A stretch of DNA of 64,000 bases from Candidatus Gottesmanbacteria bacterium RIFCSPHIGHO2_02_FULL_39_11 (GCA_001779195.1 MFJL01000041.1:16881-80880); one strand, 5' to 3'. Counted from the first letter of the stretch, positions 1,187 through 9,911 are shown. Numbers and translations are program-made. The notes: generated from the sequence alone by a model not told the origin.

Positions 1187-1898
1187 AAGGAATCCTCGGC
1201 AGGAAAAAAAAGTAATCCTTAAACGTTCTGATTTTATTCATTTTACTTTTTCCCCAAACCCGGGGGGTATAGATAATAGGAATCTCGGAAATTCTAAATC
1301 CGCTTTTGTGGGAAATTAAAATAAATTCCAGATACGCAGGATATCCTTTTTCTTTTAACATCTTGCGGATGGCAGATATCGTTTCTGATTTTATCAACCG
1401 GTATCCTGAGGTAGCATCAGATATCGGAAGATCTAAAATCACTTTTAGAAATAAGTTAATGCATCTGCTTATTACCCGTTTCCAAAGACGCTTATCATAA
1501 AATGCTCCTTTTTCAATAAACCGCGAACCGACTACGATATCTGATTTTTTTTCTTTCATATTCTTAAAAAAACTCTGGATTATCTTAGGATCATGGTTAA
1601 GATCAGCATCCATAGTCAAAACATGGGTTGTCGATTTATTTATTTTTTCAAAACCGGTCTTATAAGCCATTCCAATTCCCAAAGGCCTAGTGAAATAATC
1701 TGCTTTGATTTTTTTAGGATATTTTTTTTGAAGCTTTCTAATTTCCATTTTGCTTTTATCATTTCCCTGAATAATAAAAAAAAGCCGGTAAGAGCTGGTT
1801 ATCTTTTTCAGATTTTGAATAAGGTGTGTGGTAAGAGGTTTTAGGTTACCTGCTTCGTTGTATGCTGGGATGACGCACAGTATTTTTATTTTATCCAT
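1176..1898 (-). CDS. GT2 polyprenyl/dolichyl-phosphate sugar synthase (DPM1/GtrB-like)
   Basis: N-terminal CVIPAYNE motif, then VLTMDADLNHDP (the DAD motif) and a PRVWGKSKM tail, as in DPM synthase and GtrB. Confidence 0.8.
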   Translation of the reverse strand: MDKIKILCVIPAYNEAGNLKPLTTHLIQNLKKITSSYRLFFIIQGNDKSKMEIRKLQKKYPKKIKADYFTRPLGIGMAYKTGFEKINKSTTHVLTMDADLNHDPKIIQSFFKNMKEKKSDIVVGSRFIEKGAFYDKRLWKRVISRCINLFLKVILDLPISDATSGYRLIKSETISAIRKMLKEKGYPAYLEFILISHKSGFRISEIPIIYTPRVWGKSKMNKIRTFKDYFFFLPRIPFIF

Positions 1899-1949
1899 AA
1901 AAGTATAGCGTTTATGATAATATAGCGATACCGATCTGGCAAATATACT

Positions 1950-3161
1950 ATGAATATAGGAATGATTTCTTACTGGTCTTCTCCTCTTGCCAGAGTCGGG
2001 GTGTGGGAAGCGGGAGGGATGAATGTATATATTTCAGGACTTTCTCAGGGGTTAATTGATCTTGGTCATAAGGTTGATATATACACCAAATCTCCCAATT
2101 GCAAGGAAATAAAAATAACAAATGTTGTAAAAAATCTTCGAGTCATTCATATTCCCATATACGGGAATTTATACGCAGGAGTACCAACTTTTACTCATAA
2201 AATTGAAGAACTGATCCAAAAAGAAAATATATCCTACGATGTGTTTCATTCTCATTATTTTTACTCAGGTCTGATAGTCGAAAATTTAAAAAAAGACCAT
2301 ATTCCCTGGGTACATAATTCTCATTCATACGGAATTCTGAAAGCCAAAACTATAGGAATAATAGATAAAAAAAGAATTAAGTATGAAAAAGAGATATTTC
2401 AAAGAGCAGACGCACTCATTGTATCTACCTATGCAGAAAGAGAAGTAGTATTGGAAGAATATCCTAAGGCATCGGAAAAGATTTATCTCATATCTCCGGG
2501 AATTGACCATAACATATTTAAGCCTTTAGACAAATACAAATCCCGCCAAAAGCTGAACTTATCCAGAAATAAAATATATATATTATTTGTAGGTAGAATT
2601 GATCCGGTAAAGGGAATACCCTCTCTTATAACCGCAGTACAAAAACTATTGCAAAGTGAGCCAAATTTAAAAAGTAACCTGGAAGTCTTACTAATTGGCG
2701 GAGATATATCTTCTAAAAAATTCTGGAAGCAAAAAGAAGTAAAAATGATAAAAGATCTTATCCAAAAAGTAAATCTTTCTGGCAACATCAGATTTTTGGG
2801 AAGCAGATCAAACACGGTTCTACCTTATTACTACAGCGCCTGTGATATAGTAGTTCTTCCTTCTGTTTATGAATCCTTTGGGCTTGTTGTTCTGGAAGCT
2901 ATGGCCTGCCGCGCATGTGTCGTTGCTTCAAAAGCTGGAGGTCCCGAGTATCTGATACAGGACGGAAAAAACGGACTGTTATTTGACCGCGAAAATACAG
3001 CCCAGCTAAATAGGATTTTAAAAGATCTTATACATAATCCCGGCAAAAGAGAGAAAATAGGCAAAAATGCAGTTACCAGAAGCTTTGATTTCTGCTGGAG
3101 TACCCAAGCTGAAAAAGTGGTGTCTTTGTATGGAAAAATGATGAAACGAACTTCTTATTAA
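1950..3161 (+). CDS. GT4 family glycosyltransferase
   Basis: N-terminal GGMNVYISGLSQGL and C-terminal FGLVVLEAMACRACVVASKAGGPEYLIQDGKNGLLFD (the EX7E-type GT4 motif region). Confidence 0.8.
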   Translation: MNIGMISYWSSPLARVGVWEAGGMNVYISGLSQGLIDLGHKVDIYTKSPNCKEIKITNVVKNLRVIHIPIYGNLYAGVPTFTHKIEELIQKENISYDVFHSHYFYSGLIVENLKKDHIPWVHNSHSYGILKAKTIGIIDKKRIKYEKEIFQRADALIVSTYAEREVVLEEYPKASEKIYLISPGIDHNIFKPLDKYKSRQKLNLSRNKIYILFVGRIDPVKGIPSLITAVQKLLQSEPNLKSNLEVLLIGGDISSKKFWKQKEVKMIKDLIQKVNLSGNIRFLGSRSNTVLPYYYSACDIVVLPSVYESFGLVVLEAMACRACVVASKAGGPEYLIQDGKNGLLFDRENTAQLNRILKDLIHNPGKREKIGKNAVTRSFDFCWSTQAEKVVSLYGKMMKRTSY

Positions 3162-3186
3162 GAATTACCATATTGATAGGTAATCT

Positions 3187-3768
3187 ATGAAATCGACAAA
3201 ACTAATTCTGCTTAGACATGGACAAGTACATAATCCGAAAAGTATTTTATATGGAAGACTTCCCGGGTTTGGTTTATCTGCTAAAGGCCGCGAAGATGTA
3301 CTGAAAGCATACGAAAAATTGAAGAACGAATCTATTGACACAATTTTTATGAGTCCTCTTCTTCGTACCCGCCAGACAGCCAGTATTTTTGCTAAAAATT
3401 TGGGACTTGCGGTCCATACTGATAAAAGACTTATTGAAGTCAAATTATATTGTGAAGGAGTAAGTTTAACTGAGTTTAAATCTGATTTACAGCCTGATTT
3501 ATACTCGGAAGAAAACTATAAAAAAGGACAGGAAAGTGTAGAAGAAATCTCACAGCGCATGAACAGATTCCTATCTTTTATTAAAGAAAAATACCCCGGA
3601 AAAACGGTTCTTGCTGTTTCTCACGGGGATCCGATTATCATTCTCGAGTCTCAAGTTTTAAAGACTCCTTTTACCTGGGAATTTAAAAGAGACAACTATG
3701 TAAATACTGCCTACTATCGTATAATTGAAACAGGAAGGCATGATAAAAAATGGCACGTACGCATCTAG
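3187..3768 (+). CDS. histidine phosphatase family protein (phosphoglycerate mutase-like branch)
   Basis: LLRHGQ catalytic motif near the N-terminus, then RTRQTA and SHGDP. Confidence 0.75.
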   Translation: MKSTKLILLRHGQVHNPKSILYGRLPGFGLSAKGREDVLKAYEKLKNESIDTIFMSPLLRTRQTASIFAKNLGLAVHTDKRLIEVKLYCEGVSLTEFKSDLQPDLYSEENYKKGQESVEEISQRMNRFLSFIKEKYPGKTVLAVSHGDPIIILESQVLKTPFTWEFKRDNYVNTAYYRIIETGRHDKKWHVRI

Positions 3769-4394
3769 CAAAGTCTGTACTTTTTTTTCTAATTTTTCTT
3801 TTTTTAAGCTTTATTACCACCTGGGGAATTTTTGACCGGTTTGACTATTTCTCAATGATTTTTTTACAAAGGATAATTCCGCCGCTTTTTGATATTCCGT
3901 TTGCTCTTTTATCCTTCAGCGGATCAACTGAGATAACGGCTCTTCTTCTTCTGGTATTTTCTTATATTTTTTTCGCAAAGAGAAAAAAAATTCCATTCGG
4001 AATTATTCTTTTTGCCCTGATATTTTTAATTGAGGTAGCCGGAAAGATATTTATTTTCCAGGAACCACCTCCTATCTATCTTCAGAAAAAAGTGATTCCC
4101 TTTATCTTTCCAAGCAGCTCTTTTGTCTTTACACCTTTTTCCTACCCTTCCGGACACATGGCACGGATATGCTTTCTTGCAACTCTTTATTTGACTTACG
4201 CAGTGAAATTTATCCGTGAAAAAAAGAAAATGAAAATTATTTTAGTAGTCGGTATATTCTACCTTTTTATTATGACTGTCAGCCGGATTTATCTGGGGGC
4301 GCACTGGTTTTCGGATGTTTTGGGAGGTGCGATACTGGGCATTTCTTTGGGACTTCTGGCAAATGACCTAATATATGAAAAAAACATCGGATAA
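3750..4394 (+). CDS. PAP2 (type 2 phosphatidic acid / undecaprenyl-PP) phosphatase family membrane protein
   Basis: PSGH and SRIYLGAHWFSDV motifs. Multiple TM helices. Overlaps both neighbours. Confidence 0.75.
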   Translation: MARTHLAKSVLFFLIFLFLSFITTWGIFDRFDYFSMIFLQRIIPPLFDIPFALLSFSGSTEITALLLLVFSYIFFAKRKKIPFGIILFALIFLIEVAGKIFIFQEPPPIYLQKKVIPFIFPSSSFVFTPFSYPSGHMARICFLATLYLTYAVKFIREKKKMKIILVVGIFYLFIMTVSRIYLGAHWFSDVLGGAILGISLGLLANDLIYEKNIG

Positions 4395-5073
4395 ATTCAA
4401 CAATTGTATTAACTCATACCTATACATGGATATTTTGGGAGTTAGTATTAACTGCCCCTACTGGGCAAATCGGATGGAAAATGGAGTTGTAACCGTCCGG
4501 GGGTTTGAAGAGGGAAAAGGGGAGGCGAGTACTATTCAAAATGAAATAATGCGACTTGCAAGCGGGAGTAAAAAAGATAAACCTGAAGGAAAATTGGATT
4601 TTGAAAATATTACTTTTTTGGCAAGAAAAAACAGAATAGGAATTGACTGCTCAGGACTTATTTTCCGTATTATGGAGGCGGTTCTTGAAAAAAAAGATAT
4701 GGACATGATATTTCCTTTAGGAATCAGGAAAACGAATGCGGATATGCTTACCCGTAATTTATATTCACAAAAGATTGACTCTATAAAAGAAATCGCTGTT
4801 GGCGATCTTATACGGCTTAGTTCAGGACATCATGCAGTAATTATTACTCACATAGAAGGTGAGACCGTTAAGTATGTACATTCGTCCTCCCGTACGCAAA
4901 TATCAGGAGTACATACGGGAGAAATGGTTATTAATAAAGGAAGTGAAACAATTGAAAGCCAGGTATGGAAGGAAAAAACTTTTCGGGGCCAGAACTGGAA
5001 GGATAAATATTTTCACGGAGAAGAAGATGGAGTATACCGGAATAAATTCTTATACACTGCCTTAAACCCATGA
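4375..5073 (+). CDS. NlpC/P60-like papain-fold hydrolase. Start uncertain; ATG candidates at 4426 and 4471.
   Basis: Cys in IDCSGLI. His in GDLIRLSSGHHAVII, followed by KYVHSS as a likely third residue. Spacing is typical of NlpC/P60. Confidence 0.5.
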   Translation: MKKTSDKFNNCINSYLYMDILGVSINCPYWANRMENGVVTVRGFEEGKGEASTIQNEIMRLASGSKKDKPEGKLDFENITFLARKNRIGIDCSGLIFRIMEAVLEKKDMDMIFPLGIRKTNADMLTRNLYSQKIDSIKEIAVGDLIRLSSGHHAVIITHIEGETVKYVHSSSRTQISGVHTGEMVINKGSETIESQVWKEKTFRGQNWKDKYFHGEEDGVYRNKFLYTALNP

Positions 5074-6464
5074 TGAAAAAACCTTTTTCACTTGCCGAAT
5101 TTAGGAATAAATCCGTTCATATTGTAGGAGTCACCGGGTCTGAAGGAAGTGCAATCCTGAGATTATTAACACAGGAAAAGTTTAAAAATATTACGGTACA
5201 TGATTACAGTCCTTTGGAATATTCGGAGAGAAGCTTTAAAGTGTGGCACAAGGGTATACCATTGCGTGATCGGAATAACGCATTTAAAATATTTGCACAA
5301 GATATAAAAACAGTTAACAAAAACTTTGGAAATGATTATTTAAAGGAAATTGAATCCGGTGATATTATTTTTGCTCCTCAGTCGTGGAGACTGTATAAAA
5401 GGCAAAATGTCCCGTTGTTAGAAGCACATCAAAAAGGGATTCTATTTTGTTCATTAACTTCCCTGTATCTGGATTTGTCACCTGCAAAAGTTATTGCCGT
5501 TTGCGGAACCGTAGGCAAGGGAAGCGTATCCCACCTAATTTATGATGTTTTAAAAGGAAGTGGCAAGTCTGTGTACTATGGAGGAAATGACACGTGGAAT
5601 ATACAGTCTCTTGAGAATATTACTTCCCTTAGCAGAGAAGATTATTTAGTTCTTGAAGTTTCTCACCGGCAGCTTCAGGAAGGACTACAGAAGGGTCCCT
5701 TTATCGGCGTTCTTACCAATATTTATCCGAATCATTTGGATGAAACAGGCTTGGAGGAATACAAAAAACTGAAATATTCACTTTTTACCTCTCAACTATC
5801 TTCTGATTTTGCCGTACTCAACAATGACTATAAAGATATAAGTGATCTGGCAAAAGAAATAAAATCACAAGCAGTTTTTTTCAGCACTAAGGATTTAAAA
5901 TTGAACACAAAATATGTTCAAATTATTTATGATTATTTTATGAGGAATAAAAGTAATCATTTAATTGAAAATATAATAGCGACAGGCGCAGTACTTGAGT
6001 TATTGAACATTTCTGTTGAACAGACAATTAAAGAAATTTCCAGCTCAAAATCATTACAGGCAAGAATGCAAAAAATTGCAGAAAATGGAGAGATTGAATG
6101 GTATGACGATGTCAAAAGCACAACCCCGTGGGCAACACTAGCGCTTATTAATAAATTGGGTAATAATCTTATCCTTATTATGGGGGGGAAAACTAAGGGT
6201 ATTGATTACAAAGATGCACTAAAAGAAATACAGAAAAGAGTTTTAAAATTAATTATTTTAGAAAGCGAGTTAAGGAGCGAAGCTTCAAAGTATTTAATGC
6301 CGGGAAGCTACATGATTGCCGGTACGTTAAAAGATGCATTAGCCCTATCTTATAAAGAAGCAAAAAAGGGAACAAAAATTGCCGTATCTCCCGGAGCTGC
6401 TTTTTTTTATACCGATTTTATAAAAGGTAAAAGTTCAATAAGACAGATCTTATATAACTTGTAA
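5070..6464 (+). CDS. Mur ligase family protein, MurD-like
   Basis: N-terminal Rossmann-like VHIVGVTGSEGSA. P-loop VIAVCGTVGKGSV. C-terminal domain with DDVKSTTPWAT...IMGGKTKG, resembling MurD NDSKATN...GG. It is not in a cell-wall synthesis gene context, so it may be a paralog with a different substrate. Confidence 0.55.
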   Translation: MMKKPFSLAEFRNKSVHIVGVTGSEGSAILRLLTQEKFKNITVHDYSPLEYSERSFKVWHKGIPLRDRNNAFKIFAQDIKTVNKNFGNDYLKEIESGDIIFAPQSWRLYKRQNVPLLEAHQKGILFCSLTSLYLDLSPAKVIAVCGTVGKGSVSHLIYDVLKGSGKSVYYGGNDTWNIQSLENITSLSREDYLVLEVSHRQLQEGLQKGPFIGVLTNIYPNHLDETGLEEYKKLKYSLFTSQLSSDFAVLNNDYKDISDLAKEIKSQAVFFSTKDLKLNTKYVQIIYDYFMRNKSNHLIENIIATGAVLELLNISVEQTIKEISSSKSLQARMQKIAENGEIEWYDDVKSTTPWATLALINKLGNNLILIMGGKTKGIDYKDALKEIQKRVLKLIILESELRSEASKYLMPGSYMIAGTLKDALALSYKEAKKGTKIAVSPGAAFFYTDFIKGKSSIRQILYNL

Positions 6465-6475
6465 AGGACCGTCCC

Positions 6476-6664
6476 TTACTTTTCTTCTTCAATCGGGGTG
6501 ATGGTGAGAGGATCTAAATCTACAACTTCTGATTCACTGGCACATTTCTGACACTCATAAATTGTCCCAACTTTAATGGGATTTTGGATAACCATAGAGG
6601 AATTACACATCGGACATGCGATAATGATTGCGCTGGTAGAGTTTTTTTGAATATCGGCGATCAT
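6476..6664 (-). CDS. LysW/ArgW-like amino-group carrier protein (zinc-ribbon with an acidic tail)
   Basis: CPMC...ECQKC zinc ribbon. ESEVVDLDPLTITPIEEEK aligns with Thermus LysW (CPECG...CEDCG...ELEVVGLDPL...EEAEDWGE). The tail ends in EEEK rather than a terminal Glu. Confidence 0.6.
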   Translation of the reverse strand: MIADIQKNSTSAIIIACPMCNSSMVIQNPIKVGTIYECQKCASESEVVDLDPLTITPIEEEK

Positions 6665-6692
6665 AGGGTAAAATTAAACCACATTTCTATCT

Positions 6693-7541
6693 ATGAAGCA
6701 ACATAACATTACTATCGGTAATACTCAACTTGCAAATATTGAATCTGTCTATTTCAAATGCGAGTTTGAAAATCCGACCGGATCGGTAAAAGACAGATCC
6801 ATAATAAATCAGGTATTAAATGCTAAAAAGAGAGGATTTAAACTAGCCGTAATTTCCTCATCCGGAAATGCGGCAATTTCAGCCTCTAACTATTGTAAGG
6901 AAGCAAATATCAATTTAACCGCATTTGTTTCGTATCACATAAACTTGGGCAAACTTGAGAAACTTAAAGAATCAGGGACAGACATTATTCAAAGCCAAAA
7001 ACCCATAAGTGATGCGGCATCATTTTCTTTAAAAAATAATGCATATAATCTCAGACAGTCCCTTGATTCTGAGGCAGTATCAGGATATCAAAATATTTCT
7101 TATGAACTTTTAAAACAAATCCCAAATGCAGATGCCATCTTTATTCCGGTAAGTAGCGGGACAATGTTTGTAGGAATTGCCCGGGGATATATGGGATATG
7201 AAGGGCCAGCGTTACATGCGACGCAGACAGAAGCAGTTCACCCCATTTCTCAACAGTTCGATCGTGAGTTTTCTCCCAGTTCTGAAAGTATTGCTGATGG
7301 AATTGTTGCAAAAGTTACCACACGTGAGAGTGAAGTAATTGATCTTATTGAAAAGTCTGACGGGTTTGGATGGGTTATTGGGGATGATCAAATAAAAAAA
7401 GCACACCAGTATTTAAGAGCTTATGGTATTAGAACTTCCTACGAAGGTGCGATGGCTTTAGCAGCAGTTTGGAAAGCAAAAGAAAAAGGATATAGGTATA
7501 AAAGTCCGGTATGCATATTATCAGGAAGTTTTTATGGATAA
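6693..7541 (+). CDS. PLP-dependent fold-type II enzyme (ThrC/CysK/TrpB-like)
   Basis: FENPTGSVKDR, the PLP-lysine motif of the tryptophan-synthase-beta superfamily. Glycine-rich SSSGNAA loop. Short at 282 aa. Confidence 0.65.
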   Translation: MKQHNITIGNTQLANIESVYFKCEFENPTGSVKDRSIINQVLNAKKRGFKLAVISSSGNAAISASNYCKEANINLTAFVSYHINLGKLEKLKESGTDIIQSQKPISDAASFSLKNNAYNLRQSLDSEAVSGYQNISYELLKQIPNADAIFIPVSSGTMFVGIARGYMGYEGPALHATQTEAVHPISQQFDREFSPSSESIADGIVAKVTTRESEVIDLIEKSDGFGWVIGDDQIKKAHQYLRAYGIRTSYEGAMALAAVWKAKEKGYRYKSPVCILSGSFYG

Positions 7542-8854
7542 TGAATTTAATGAATAACAAAACATATATCCAATACCTTTTTAAAGATGATGATTTTTTT
7601 TATGTTACAACAGATGTAAAACGTGCATTAGGGCTTGAAGACATACTCCCTAATTTTCACGTTATTACATCTGTTTATGATCCTCTTATTCCGCTTCTTC
7701 GGAATAAAAATATACACGTTTTTTGTTTGGAAGAAGAAGTTGAAAAAGAGAATATGTCGGTTAAAAGTGCAAGGCAACTTTTTTTCCATCCTAAAGCCCA
7801 AAATTATATTCATAACCAGTCCAGTCGACCTAATATTCTTACTTTTAAGCCGGTTGAAGGAATGGGGGAAGAAAAGGGAGAGGATGGATATGAGTATATA
7901 GGAAACGGAAGAGAGCTTAATGAACAGTTTGAGGACAAGATAAACTTTTACCAGATATTAAAAGACAATTTTAAAGAGAATATGGTTCCCTCTATTATTG
8001 GACAGCTTGCAGAACTGACATACGGTAATATTAGAGATCAGTTAGGAGAGTCTCTCGTTATCCAATTCGGAAAAGGGTGGGCAGGAAATACCAGTTTCGA
8101 TGTAGAAAATGAAAGTGATTTTGAAAATTTGAAAAAAAGGTTTCCTCAAACGCATGTTCGAGTGAGCAAAAGAATTAACGGTAATACATTTTTGAATAAT
8201 TGCTGTATTTATAAAAATACAATATTTCACAGTTCTCCTGCAATTCAGATAAACGGAATTTCATGGCTAAATAAAAATCCTTTGGCAACTTCAGGAAGAG
8301 AATGGGGAAATAAGTTTTTAAGTTCAAAAGAGACAGAAGAAATAAGATTTCTTACCGAAAAAATGGGAAGGCTGCTTATTAAATCCACATACCGGGGATA
8401 CTTTGGACTGGATTTTATTGTGGATTCTGTAACCGGAAAGGTATACGTCTCAGAAATAAATGCACGCTTTACCGCTTCTTGCCCTTTCTATACAAAACTG
8501 GAATTAGGGAGTGAGATTCTGCCGTTATACGTCTATCATTTAGCTGAGTTTTTAGGAAAAGACATTAAAAAAGAATACAGAAGGTATGAGGGCATTGAGG
8601 GATGTGAGGTAAATGGAGAGTTAGACAAAATGTCAAATTTAAGAGTTGGAACATATAAAATAGAAGATGACGGGACATTTGATTTTGAAAATGACTCTTA
8701 TGATCCAGCAAAAATATTAAAAGACGAGGTAGTCTTAATTACAGACCCAAAAAATTCAGTGAAGATCCAAACTAATTATCCACTCCTTGCAAGTCCAGGG
8801 AAATTTCAGGAAAAGTTTGAGAAAATCATCAAAAAGGAGATTATAACGGGATAA
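7541..8854 (+). CDS. ATP-grasp ligase (LysX/RimK-like C-terminal domain with an N-terminal extension of about 170 aa)
   Basis: YRGYFGLDFIVDSVTGKVYVSEINARFTAS ATP-grasp motif. The start codon overlaps the upstream stop as TAATG. The ORF track start at 7511 would overlap the PLP gene by 31 nt. Confidence 0.65.
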   Translation: MNLMNNKTYIQYLFKDDDFFYVTTDVKRALGLEDILPNFHVITSVYDPLIPLLRNKNIHVFCLEEEVEKENMSVKSARQLFFHPKAQNYIHNQSSRPNILTFKPVEGMGEEKGEDGYEYIGNGRELNEQFEDKINFYQILKDNFKENMVPSIIGQLAELTYGNIRDQLGESLVIQFGKGWAGNTSFDVENESDFENLKKRFPQTHVRVSKRINGNTFLNNCCIYKNTIFHSSPAIQINGISWLNKNPLATSGREWGNKFLSSKETEEIRFLTEKMGRLLIKSTYRGYFGLDFIVDSVTGKVYVSEINARFTASCPFYTKLELGSEILPLYVYHLAEFLGKDIKKEYRRYEGIEGCEVNGELDKMSNLRVGTYKIEDDGTFDFENDSYDPAKILKDEVVLITDPKNSVKIQTNYPLLASPGKFQEKFEKIIKKEIITG

Positions 8855-8894
8855 TACTGTATCTGGTATAATTGTAAACTTATTAACAAGCACT

Positions 8895-9911
8895 ATGGAA
8901 GAACTTAAAAAAAGATTAACTGAACTTACCTCAAAGCTGGATATTCCGGGCAAAAAGAAGAAGGTAGAGGAAATTGAGACTCAGTCCTCAGACCCTGCAT
9001 TTTGGCAGGAGCAGGAAAAGTCAACCCGGATAATGAAGGAATTATCCCGACTTAATAAGCAGATAAAGCAGATTGAAAACTTAGAAATTTTGATCGAACT
9101 CGGAGATTTTAAGGAAGCAGAGAGCCAGATAGGACAACTTGAATTTGATCTCTATTTCTCAGGACCCCATGATGAACTCGGATGTATTCTCTCCATCCAT
9201 GCAGGTCAGGGAGGGACTGAAGCTATGGACTGGGCATCCATGCTTTTTCGCATGTATCTGAGATTTTGTGAGATACAGGGATGGAAGTATGAAATGGTTG
9301 ATGAAGTCGCGGGCGATGAGGCGGGAATTAAAAGTGCTGTTTTATCAATTGACGAGCCTTTGGCATATGGGTATTTAAAGGCGGAAAGGGGAGTGCACCG
9401 TCTCGTCCGTCAGTCACCTTTTAATGCAGATAAGCTTCGCCAAACTTCTTTTGCACTTATCGAGGTTTTGCCTATTTTTGAAGATACGGAAGAAGTTGAA
9501 ATAAAAGACGGAGATGTGGAATGGGAGTTTTTCAGAAGCGGGGGAAAAGGAGGACAGAATGTAAATAAAGTAGCAACGGCGGTTCGCCTTAAACATAAAG
9601 CAACCGGGCTAATTGTTGAGTGTCAGGAGCAAAGATATCAGGGGCAAAATAGAGAGACAGCACTGAAAATTCTGCGGGGGAAACTATGGCAGATGATGGA
9701 AGAGCAAAAAGTAAAAGATATATCGGAGTTAAAAGGAGAGCATAAAATGGCTTCCTGGGGGAATCAGATCCGCTCTTATGTACTCCACCCCTATCATTTG
9801 GTAAAAGATTTAAGAACGGGTTATGAGACAAGCGATACGAAGTCGGTCTTAGACGGTAACATTGAACCGTTTATCCTTGCCTACTTGAAAAAATTTTCAT
9901 CCGGCGTATAG
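8895..9911 (+). CDS. prfB: peptide chain release factor 2
   Basis: SPF tripeptide (QSPFNAD), GGQ motif (GGKGGQNVNKVATAVRL) and EQRYQGQNRE. One continuous ORF with no +1 frameshift site. Confidence 0.9.
   Translation: MEELKKRLTELTSKLDIPGKKKKVEEIETQSSDPAFWQEQEKSTRIMKELSRLNKQIKQIENLEILIELGDFKEAESQIGQLEFDLYFSGPHDELGCILSIHAGQGGTEAMDWASMLFRMYLRFCEIQGWKYEMVDEVAGDEAGIKSAVLSIDEPLAYGYLKAERGVHRLVRQSPFNADKLRQTSFALIEVLPIFEDTEEVEIKDGDVEWEFFRSGGKGGQNVNKVATAVRLKHKATGLIVECQEQRYQGQNRETALKILRGKLWQMMEEQKVKDISELKGEHKMASWGNQIRSYVLHPYHLVKDLRTGYETSDTKSVLDGNIEPFILAYLKKFSSGV

Follow-up and report, generated by a model that had tools for sequence, protein, structure and literature searches.

We analysed a stretch of 64,000 nucleotides (nt) from Candidatus Gottesmanbacteria bacterium RIFCSPHIGHO2_02_FULL_39_11 (GCA_001779195.1 MFJL01000041.1:16881-80880), which is called the window below and is counted from its first nucleotide. 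The host is Gottesmanbacteria-like and belongs to the Microgenomates in the Patescibacteria, or candidate phyla radiation (CPR). The region in question is a run of genes at 3187-6464, described in an earlier note on this DNA as an operon of four genes (histidine phosphatase, PAP2 phosphatase, NlpC/P60-like hydrolase and an orphan MurD-like ligase), together with the three genes that follow it. We find that the conserved unit at this locus is a set of five genes, referred to here as the module. It encodes an NlpC/P60 protein, the MurD-like ligase, a LysW-like zinc ribbon, a pyridoxal-phosphate (PLP) enzyme and an ATP-grasp protein. The genes of the locus are as follows.

1950-3161, plus strand: GT4 (family 4) glycosyltransferase (Glycos_transf_1, 154 bits in Pfam)
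3187-3768, plus strand: histidine phosphatase, branch 1 (His_Phos_1), 193 amino acids (aa)
3750-4394, plus strand: PAP2 membrane phosphatase of the undecaprenyl-diphosphate or lipid-phosphate phosphatase type, 214 aa
4375-5073, plus strand: divergent NlpC/P60 cysteine peptidase, 232 aa (module component 1)
5070-6464, plus strand: MurD-clade ligase with a remodelled amino-acid site, 464 aa (module component 2)
6476-6664, minus strand: LysW-like four-Cys zinc-ribbon protein, putative carrier, 62 aa (module component 3)
6693-7541, plus strand: fold-type II PLP enzyme, PALP (module component 4)
7511-8854, plus strand: ATP-grasp ligase of an unnamed family, started at 7541 by the gene caller (module component 5)

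ORF (open reading frame) calling and searches of Pfam and NCBIfam bear out the four ORFs of the earlier note and the calls of histidine phosphatase, PAP2 and Mur ligase; the NlpC/P60 call is treated below. All four overlap as it had said, by 19, 20 and 4 nt across 3187-6464, so that one overlap lies just outside the range of 4-19 nt that it gave. The 20-nt overlap between the PAP2 and NlpC genes hinges on the ATG at 4375, and the gene caller of the source starts the NlpC gene at 4426. We prefer the upstream start because the NlpC homologues keep the 17 residues that precede the second Met (the 4426 start), and because the homologue in L003 has Ile in place of that Met. The GT4 gene ends 25 nt before the phosphatase start on the same strand, and therefore the co-directional run begins before 3187. 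The carrier ORF is convergent on the ligase, as noted earlier, with 11 nt rather than 12 nt from stop to stop, and 28 nt separate it from the start of the PLP-enzyme gene. Since only these 11 nt and 28 nt flank the antisense carrier ORF, its promoter must sit within the neighbouring genes. A scan of 1800-9000 for promoters and terminators found no enrichment over shuffled sequence (28 against 24.9 and 4 against 4.2, respectively), which speaks neither way on internal transcription units. Downstream of the ATP-grasp gene lie prfB, ftsE, ftsX and an M23 peptidase gene.

With each GTDB species represented by one genome, we collected the loci of ligase relatives, read them ±10 kb around the matches and searched their ORFs with the window proteins. 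About 18 Gottesmanbacteria genomes share the order PMT2-GT2-GT4-HisPhos-PAP2-NlpC-Lig-carrier(-)-PALP-ATPgrasp-prfB-o159-FtsE-FtsX-M23, in which Lig is the ligase and (-) marks a gene on the opposite strand. In Gracilibacteria, Peribacteria, Altimarinota and other bacteria (L019-L026), just Lig-carrier(-)-PALP-ATPgrasp is left of it. The ATP-grasp gene in these lineages has about 655 codons and encodes, at the C-terminal end, SH3 and NlpC/P60 domains that score above the Pfam thresholds. Other arrangements are NlpC/P60-Lig-carrier(-)-PALP-ATPgrasp in L085 and L091 and carrier-NlpC-Lig-PALP-ATPgrasp in L116, and in L169 all five module genes are on the same strand. The components are also found fused to each other in the databases. 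The NlpC/P60 domain is joined to the ligase, with or without SH3, in eight proteins (P0012, P0070, P0086, P0304, P0309, P0314, P0317 and P0335), the ligase is joined to the PLP enzyme in P0313 and P0336, and fusions of ATP-grasp, SH3 and NlpC/P60 occur as well.

The strongest result is the link from the ligase to the carrier, the PLP enzyme and the ATP-grasp protein, which the earlier note had considered plausible but not proven: the ligase and these three keep company in Gottesmanbacteria, Gracilibacteria, Peribacteria, Altimarinota and bacteria outside the CPR, and gene fusions connect them. The four-gene operon does not stand as a functional unit, since the histidine phosphatase and PAP2 accompany the ligase in Gottesmanbacteria only, and the histidine phosphatase is gone in L002 and L003. 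Synteny in relatives thus keeps the ligase and NlpC/P60 together with the carrier, PLP enzyme and ATP-grasp, and drops the two phosphatases outside Gottesmanbacteria. Because the histidine phosphatase, PAP2 and GT4 never occur with the ligase outside that lineage, we take the five-protein module as the functional unit, and the operon described earlier is the first two genes of the module plus lineage-specific envelope neighbours. We found this gene set described nowhere in the literature on LysW, MurD, D-glutamate, NlpC and these lineages.

Two complete copies of the module and its flanks occur in a single Gottesmanbacteria bin, on separate contigs (L011, MFJM01000045.1; L013, MFJM01000004.1). 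Their ligases are each 43% identical to the window ligase, and the two copies suggest a mixed bin rather than a duplication.

In two genomes the module lies among genes for peptidoglycan synthesis. Locus L087, on a metagenome contig of the Joint Genome Institute (JGI), reads MraY-hyp-Amidohydro_3-NlpC/P60-Lig-carrier(-)-PALP-ATPgrasp-FtsW-hyp-MurG-MurC-MurB (hyp, hypothetical protein), and L173 (GCA_964559275.1; ligase 65% identical) has the same order from MraY to FtsW, where the contig ends. In the related loci L125 and L157, which have the same unusual Amidohydro_3 gene, a lone ligase with the canonical motif lies between mraY and ftsW, and the slot is without carrier, PLP enzyme, ATP-grasp and NlpC/P60. 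The same pair of Amidohydro_3 and canonical MurD is found on the short contig of L115, which stops short of mraY and ftsW. The module fills the murD slot in L087 and L173, and in the loci as read around the matches it can stand in for murD. The Amidohydro_3 metallohydrolase (3741-5315 in L087, 6096-7670 in L173; also in L125, L157 and L115) sits beside the murD slot in this one lineage, next to canonical murD and module alike, and its best match is NF006560, under the cut-off. The Amidohydro_3 superfamily includes N-acyl-D-amino-acid deacylases.

The window ligase, unlike its orthologues in L087 and L173, is not between mraY and ftsW. No mraY, murG, ftsW or second Mur ligase was found in the window or in 81 kb of the 136-kb source contig (record positions 46,328-128,014), and the earlier statement that the ligase lies outside a division and cell wall (dcw) cluster on this contig is correct over these 81 kb. 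That it is an orphan unrelated to wall synthesis is contradicted by L087 and L173, which carry the whole module between mraY and ftsW, and in Gottesmanbacteria the window module has division and envelope genes around it. Searching the database with the canonical dcw MurD P0119 returned only entries named 'bacterium' or Armatimonadota, none from Gottesmanbacteria. The module ligase may functionally be the only murD in the Gottesmanbacteria genome, and this would reframe the finding rather than refute it.

The ligase belongs with MurD, as had been proposed from its N-terminal domain, P-loop and C-terminal domain. Mur_ligase_M scores 73.5 bits against a cut-off of 24 in Pfam, and the best NCBIfam model is murD (TIGR01087) at 169.8 bits, under the cut-off of 211.95, which the module orthologue of L087 exceeds with 251.6 bits. 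MurE, MurF, MurC, cyanophycin synthetase, CfbE, PgsB and FolC score far lower than murD, and the closest solved relative is the MurD structure 3lk7 (E 3.5e-31). On the NCBIfam scores, we rejected membership of the cyanophycin synthetase, FolC, CapB, MurT and CfbE families. In a neighbour-joining tree, 28 module ligases form one split (72 of 100 bootstraps), with the canonical MurDs of L084 and L090 as the nearest relatives. The clade is large and reaches high-GC organisms outside the CPR: the ligase search gave 190 cluster representatives (50% identity) at E <= 1e-30, and more than 80 of the best 150 have non-canonical motifs of several subtypes.

Residues were compared by aligning 19 module ligases with Escherichia coli MurD and 26 canonical MurDs. 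The module ligases retain the E. coli positions D35, K115 (P-loop), N138, E157, H183, K198 (the carbamylated Lys), N271, R302, D317, T321 and K348, and replace the canonical H301, S415, D417 and R425-G426. As judged from these residues, the predicted enzyme keeps the ATP, Mg and acyl-phosphate machinery. We take T321 and K348 to hold the alpha-carboxylate of D-Glu in MurD, and S415, L416 and F422 to hold its gamma-carboxylate; on that reading, the site for the head group would be kept and that for the side chain rebuilt. The N-domain has an HxVGxxGxEG motif, an insert of about 35 residues and a PQSW motif, all of which are common to the canonical dcw MurDs of L084 and L090, and therefore the UDP-MurNAc-L-Ala (UDP-N-acetylmuramoyl-L-alanine) side of the reaction is probably unchanged.

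The canonical C-terminal motif, S-[FWY]-[DG]-x-[FY]-x-[ND]-[FY]-x-x-R-G, was scored in 117 complete ligases. It is absent from all 28 module-type ligases, the L087 ligase included; 27 of these adjoin module genes, and the contig of the remaining one (L023) stops at the ligase. It is present in the other 89 without exception, including L125, L157, L115 and every plain MraY-Lig-FtsW locus. Loss of the motif thus coincides exactly with the module set among the 117, and the ligase appears to be a MurD derivative whose side-chain pocket changed along with its gain of partners. The C-terminal motif is SPAC(N/E)YGPYF in a third type of MurD-like ligase, which fits neither the canonical nor the module pattern (L170 2112-3503, P0117; P0327, P0331, P0337 and P0375). 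In L170 this ligase adjoins a Polysacc_synt gene for a MurJ-like flippase, and no module genes are near.

The carrier gene is absent from the gene calls of the source contig, which pass directly from the ligase to the PLP enzyme, and its absence goes some way to account for the module having been overlooked. Its product matches Zn_ribbon_LysW (PF21344) at 35.9 bits against a cut-off of 27 and stays below the LysW equivalogs (TIGR01206, 30.2 against 53.2 bits; NF041070, 19.1 against 75 bits). The C-terminus in the window is ...PIEEEK. All 30 fetched module loci encode a four-Cys zinc-ribbon ORF ending in EEK, with ligases that are only about 30% identical across lineages, and 36 of the 32,179 ORFs in all fetched loci end in this way, 30 of them being the carriers. 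In 28 of the 30 loci, the carrier and ligase genes lie on opposite strands. An unvarying, flexible tail behind a LysW-like domain is the signature of carrier or substrate proteins, and we assign this role putatively.

The PLP enzyme scores 154.7 bits for PALP (PF00291; cut-off 35). All 20 sequences compared have the PLP lysine, K33, and the enzyme carries an S-S/T-S/T-G-N motif. No equivalog among ThrC, racemase, SbnA and CysK models reached its cut-off, and the best NCBIfam matches are threonine synthases. The family profile found threonine synthases at E of about 1e-24, and threonine dehydratase, serine racemases, aspartate racemase and SbnA at 1e-21 to 1e-18; none of threonine synthase, serine racemase, aspartate racemase and SbnA is clearly nearer to it than the others. 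The protein is a putative racemase or epimerase, or else a beta/gamma-replacement enzyme. The ATP-grasp fold of the last component was found in a confident AlphaFold2 (AF2) model (pLDDT 92), and the protein resembles the amino-acid ligases PylC and BesA (L-propargylglycine--L-glutamate ligase) and L-amino-acid ligases. Every database that names it says hypothetical. The full-length family match is NF005096 (PRK06524, 'biotin carboxylase'), with 99-141 bits against a cut-off of 684, and the broader unnamed family probably bears a misleading name.

Locus L088 is without the PLP enzyme and the ATP-grasp gene, and has a racemase of the Asp type directly upstream of NlpC/P60-Lig-carrier. The 683-aa protein (277-2328) scores 153 bits for TIGR00035 in its racemase part, above the cut-off, and 174 bits for the cysteate racemase CuyB, under the cut-off of 190. 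It is fused to a GT4-like domain that resembles mannosylglucosylglycerate synthase (155 bits) and that is only remotely related to the GT4 of the window (E 0.002). The L088 racemase points to a D-amino acid as the commodity.

The NlpC/P60 protein of the window scores 17.8 bits for PF00877, under the gathering score of 23. In its family, 13 of 19 members match PF00877 at E <= 0.1 (best E 3.3e-5), and Cys92, His153 and His169 are invariant in the 19 aligned members within GIDCSG...GxH...HSS. An hhalign comparison with the NlpC/P60 proteins of other lineages that occupy this position and pass Pfam aligned the triad (E 4.1e-5), and a Cys-His-His/polar triad on a papain-like fold was found. The nearest folds are gamma-D-Glu-diamino-acid endopeptidases and DL-endopeptidases, with glutathionylspermidine synthetase/amidase also among the matches; against sequences of the Protein Data Bank (PDB), the family profile gave only weak matches, at the GIDCSG motif. 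The earlier call of an NlpC/P60 enzyme thus survives profile searches as well as the fold comparison.

The three genes upstream of the module differ from it in their distribution. The GT4 protein has an MshA-type D-inositol-3-phosphate glycosyltransferase model as its best NCBIfam match (264.5 bits, under the cut-off of 462.5), and its synteny is restricted to the Gottesmanbacteria loci L002-L018, L025 and L029. It was considered as a conserved partner and rejected, since no GT4 gene is beside the module outside Gottesmanbacteria. The histidine phosphatase matches His_Phos_1 (PF00300) at 113.5 bits against a cut-off of 21.7, its translation has the RHG and SHGD motifs, and no NCBIfam equivalog reached its cut-off; the gene is missing from L002, L003 and every locus outside Gottesmanbacteria. 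The PAP2 protein (PF01569, 59 bits; cut-off 27.2) has PSGH and SRx5Hx3D motifs in its translation, and its synteny is likewise seen only within Gottesmanbacteria. The first motif, KIFIFQEPP, has no Arg where one is usual. The NCBIfam matches of the protein are weak, to models of SepP, PgpB (phosphatidylglycerophosphate phosphatase) and undecaprenyl-diphosphate phosphatase, and would fit lipid-carrier recycling adjoining wall genes. All three are lineage-specific neighbours outside the deeply conserved module; they would be envelope-related and co-transcribed here, and would have no part in the mechanism proposed below.

Elsewhere in the window, a large glycosylation island spans about 25,400-57,000. 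It contains a nucleotidyltransferase, several NDP-sugar epimerases and dehydratases, UDP-glucose dehydrogenase and many GT2 and GT4 glycosyltransferases, and also PMT_2, PMT and YfhO membrane glycosyltransferases, MptA_B and PTPS_related proteins and a Polysacc_synt flippase. From about 59,700 to past 64,000, where it runs off the window, lies a type I restriction-modification system (HsdM, an AAA_14/DUF4143 protein, HsdS and HsdR), with a RhuM-family gene just upstream.

We propose that the five-protein module may carry out the MurD step of peptidoglycan precursor synthesis, the addition of the second amino acid, in a variant form that depends on the carrier. From the sequence evidence we regard this proposal as evenly poised between right and wrong. 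We offer the exact chemistry, namely gamma-linked L-Glu on the tail, racemisation on the tether, coupling and release by NlpC/P60, with distinctly less confidence and as a tentative scheme. The ATP-grasp protein would attach L-Glu through its gamma-carboxyl to the tail of the carrier, where the most economical acceptor would be the epsilon-amine of the invariant terminal Lys. PylC acylates the epsilon-amine of Lys, and BesA forms gamma-glutamyl amides. The PLP enzyme would then epimerise the tethered Glu from L to D; the gamma-linkage suits this step because a PLP enzyme needs a free alpha-amine, which tethering by the side chain leaves free. The ligase would couple UDP-MurNAc-L-Ala to the alpha-amine of the tethered D-Glu. 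Finally, the NlpC/P60 protein would hydrolyse the gamma-D-glutamyl amide, giving the normal MurE substrate and the free carrier. It is possible, though we think it somewhat unlikely, that a broad range of uncultivated bacteria, many CPR lineages among them, use a protein carrier both to make residue 2 of the stem peptide and to put it in place, instead of MurD and a free supply of D-Glu by MurI or a D-amino-acid transaminase.

Several points weigh against this proposal. How the residue is attached, which amino acid it is and in what order the steps run are all inferred. Canonical LysW is loaded on a C-terminal Glu by the RimK-type LysX, and the module has neither. It is not evident why a tether should be required when a free racemase is enough for ordinary bacteria. 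The profile of the PLP enzyme lies no farther from threonine synthase than from racemases, so a replacement reaction is possible. The top structural neighbours of the ATP-grasp protein are PurK and biotin carboxylase, which is unspecific. Replacement of murD in place is seen in two genomes, L087 and L173, which are related. In addition, genome papers on Gracilibacteria and Peribacteria report complete peptidoglycan pathways, at a level without gene detail, and their supplements hold nothing on murD or murI.

Some of the same observations could be explained by an ordinary, divergent MurD that acts on free D-Glu (or L-Glu). In that case the PLP enzyme would be a free racemase, and the ATP-grasp protein, zinc ribbon and NlpC/P60 protein would serve other wall metabolism such as the adding or trimming of side chains, or regulation. 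The place of the ligase in the MurD clade with its catalytic residues kept, the L087 orthologue above the murD cut-off and in the murD slot, and the L088 racemase beside the ligase, which fits a simple supply of D-amino acid, are all expected of such an enzyme. However, an ordinary MurD gives no account of why loss of the D-Glu-site motif tracks the carrier, ATP-grasp and NlpC/P60 in 117 ligases, of why five genes travel and fuse together, or of the invariant carrier tail, and we consider it unlikely. The rebuilt side-chain pocket raises another prospect, that a residue other than D-Glu, or a modified Glu, stands at stem position 2 and is built on the carrier by beta/gamma-replacement from phosphorylated serine or homoserine, as threonine synthase, cysteate synthase or SbnA would do it, giving an unusual peptidoglycan composition. 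The threonine synthases that are the best NCBIfam matches of the PLP enzyme, the SbnA type among its structural relatives, and the L088 racemase, nearest to cysteate racemase (174 bits against the cut-off of 190), point the same way. Yet the downstream dcw genes of L087 look ordinary and MurE needs the gamma-carboxyl, which leaves this prospect quite unlikely.

A product outside the wall has also to be weighed. The combination of a LysW-like domain with an ATP-grasp protein, a second amide ligase and a releasing peptidase could make a small peptide, a cyanophycin-like polyamide or a modified amino acid on the carrier, in the style of amino-group carrier proteins or pearlins, with the dcw placement incidental. 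There is precedent for the biosynthesis of amino acids on a carrier (PMC9303977). We find such a product very unlikely: the N-domain of the ligase matches genuine dcw MurDs, the placement in the murD slot is exact in two genomes, cyanophycin synthetase reaches only 27.8 bits, and the module is kept in genome-reduced CPR bacteria and lies among division and envelope genes in Gottesmanbacteria. The recycling or remodelling of murein peptides, suggested in the earlier note, ranks last in our estimate and at a similarly low level. Here the NlpC/P60 enzyme would cut scavenged stem peptides and the ligase would re-attach the fragments, by analogy with YkfC and Mpl. NlpC/P60 enzymes bearing SH3 domains, such as YkfC, do process free murein peptides, the fused versions of the module have SH3, and CPR bacteria are thought to scavenge from hosts. 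But the ligase is of the MurD clade rather than Mpl or MurC, with mpl not among the NCBIfam matches of the window ligase; the module replaces murD in place and is not added to a complete dcw set; and recycling leaves the carrier and the PLP enzyme without a role.

The cytoplasmic steps of peptidoglycan synthesis (MurA-F, MurI and Ddl) are regarded as close to universal and serve as targets of antibiotics. If the tethered chemistry is borne out, peptidoglycan precursor synthesis would have its first reaction that depends on a carrier protein. A carrier-dependent MurD step would extend carrier-protein chemistry from lysine and arginine synthesis to wall synthesis. It would account for apparent gaps and oddities in the wall pathways of CPR and other uncultivated bacteria, and would give a function to four families that are now hypothetical or mis-annotated as threonine synthase or biotin carboxylase. 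The MurD2/MurL system is the sole alternative to the MurD/MurI step met in this work, and the module would be a second.

Compared with known systems, the module is closest to MurD itself, which is the best family for the ligase and has the same three domains; the P-loop, the carbamylated-Lys position, the Mg ligands, T321 and K348 are conserved. It differs from MurD in that the window ligase scores below the family cut-off, and in that H301 and the C-terminal motif (S415, D417, the F422 region and R425-G426) are replaced in every module-linked member. The module ligase, in addition, comes with a carrier, PLP enzyme, ATP-grasp and NlpC/P60, and on this contig lies outside dcw. In Xanthomonas, MurD2 ligates L-Glu and MurL then epimerises it in an ATP-dependent reaction (PMC8788868). 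As is proposed for the module, a MurD paralogue with changed amino-acid recognition there works with extra ATP-using partners that replace the supply of free D-Glu, and two ATP are used per residue. The chirality determinants of MurD2 are Glu in place of D182 and Arg in place of K348 (PMC8788868), whereas the module ligases have Asn and Lys there, and we rejected a MurD2 identity because these residues are not MurD2-like. The substrate of MurL is the nucleotide-peptide, and no domains are recognised in MurL, whereas the neighbours of the ligase here have recognisable PALP and ATP-grasp folds, and the MurD2/MurL system has no carrier, PLP enzyme or peptidase.

The putative carrier recalls the LysW/LysX system of lysine and arginine biosynthesis, with a small zinc ribbon (PF21344), an acidic flexible C-terminal tail, an ATP-grasp partner and a releasing hydrolase. 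Unlike LysW, for which the attachment residue is a C-terminal Glu, it ends in -E-E-K in the window and in 30 of 30 loci, and the module is without an ATP-grasp of the RimK/LysX type and without LysZ, LysY, LysJ and LysK partners. In glutathionylspermidine synthetase/amidase, an ATP-grasp synthetase and a papain-fold amidase act on the same amide bond. Its products and those of trypanothione synthetase, however, are small thiol-polyamine conjugates rather than a protein tail or a wall precursor, and neither a Mur ligase nor a PLP enzyme takes part. Endopeptidases of the YkfC/AvPCP type are closest in fold to the NlpC/P60 component and share the Cys-His-His triad, with SH3 present in the fused and the non-Gottesmanbacteria versions of the module. 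The Gottesmanbacteria protein, in contrast, looks cytoplasmic, is without SH3, has a conserved N-terminal CPYW...RGFxNGKG extension and is sub-threshold in Pfam. Cyanophycin synthetase, the analogy drawn in the earlier note, also has an ATP-grasp and a Mur-ligase-like domain side by side, but the comparison finds no support in sequence: the ligase scores 27.8 bits for TIGR02068 against a cut-off of 850 and 169.8 bits for murD, it is of the MurD clade with a MurD-type nucleotide-binding N-domain, and the ATP-grasp of the module is a separate gene of a different subfamily. On these likenesses and differences, we rate the module as a variant of the MurD step that borrows the logic of carrier proteins.

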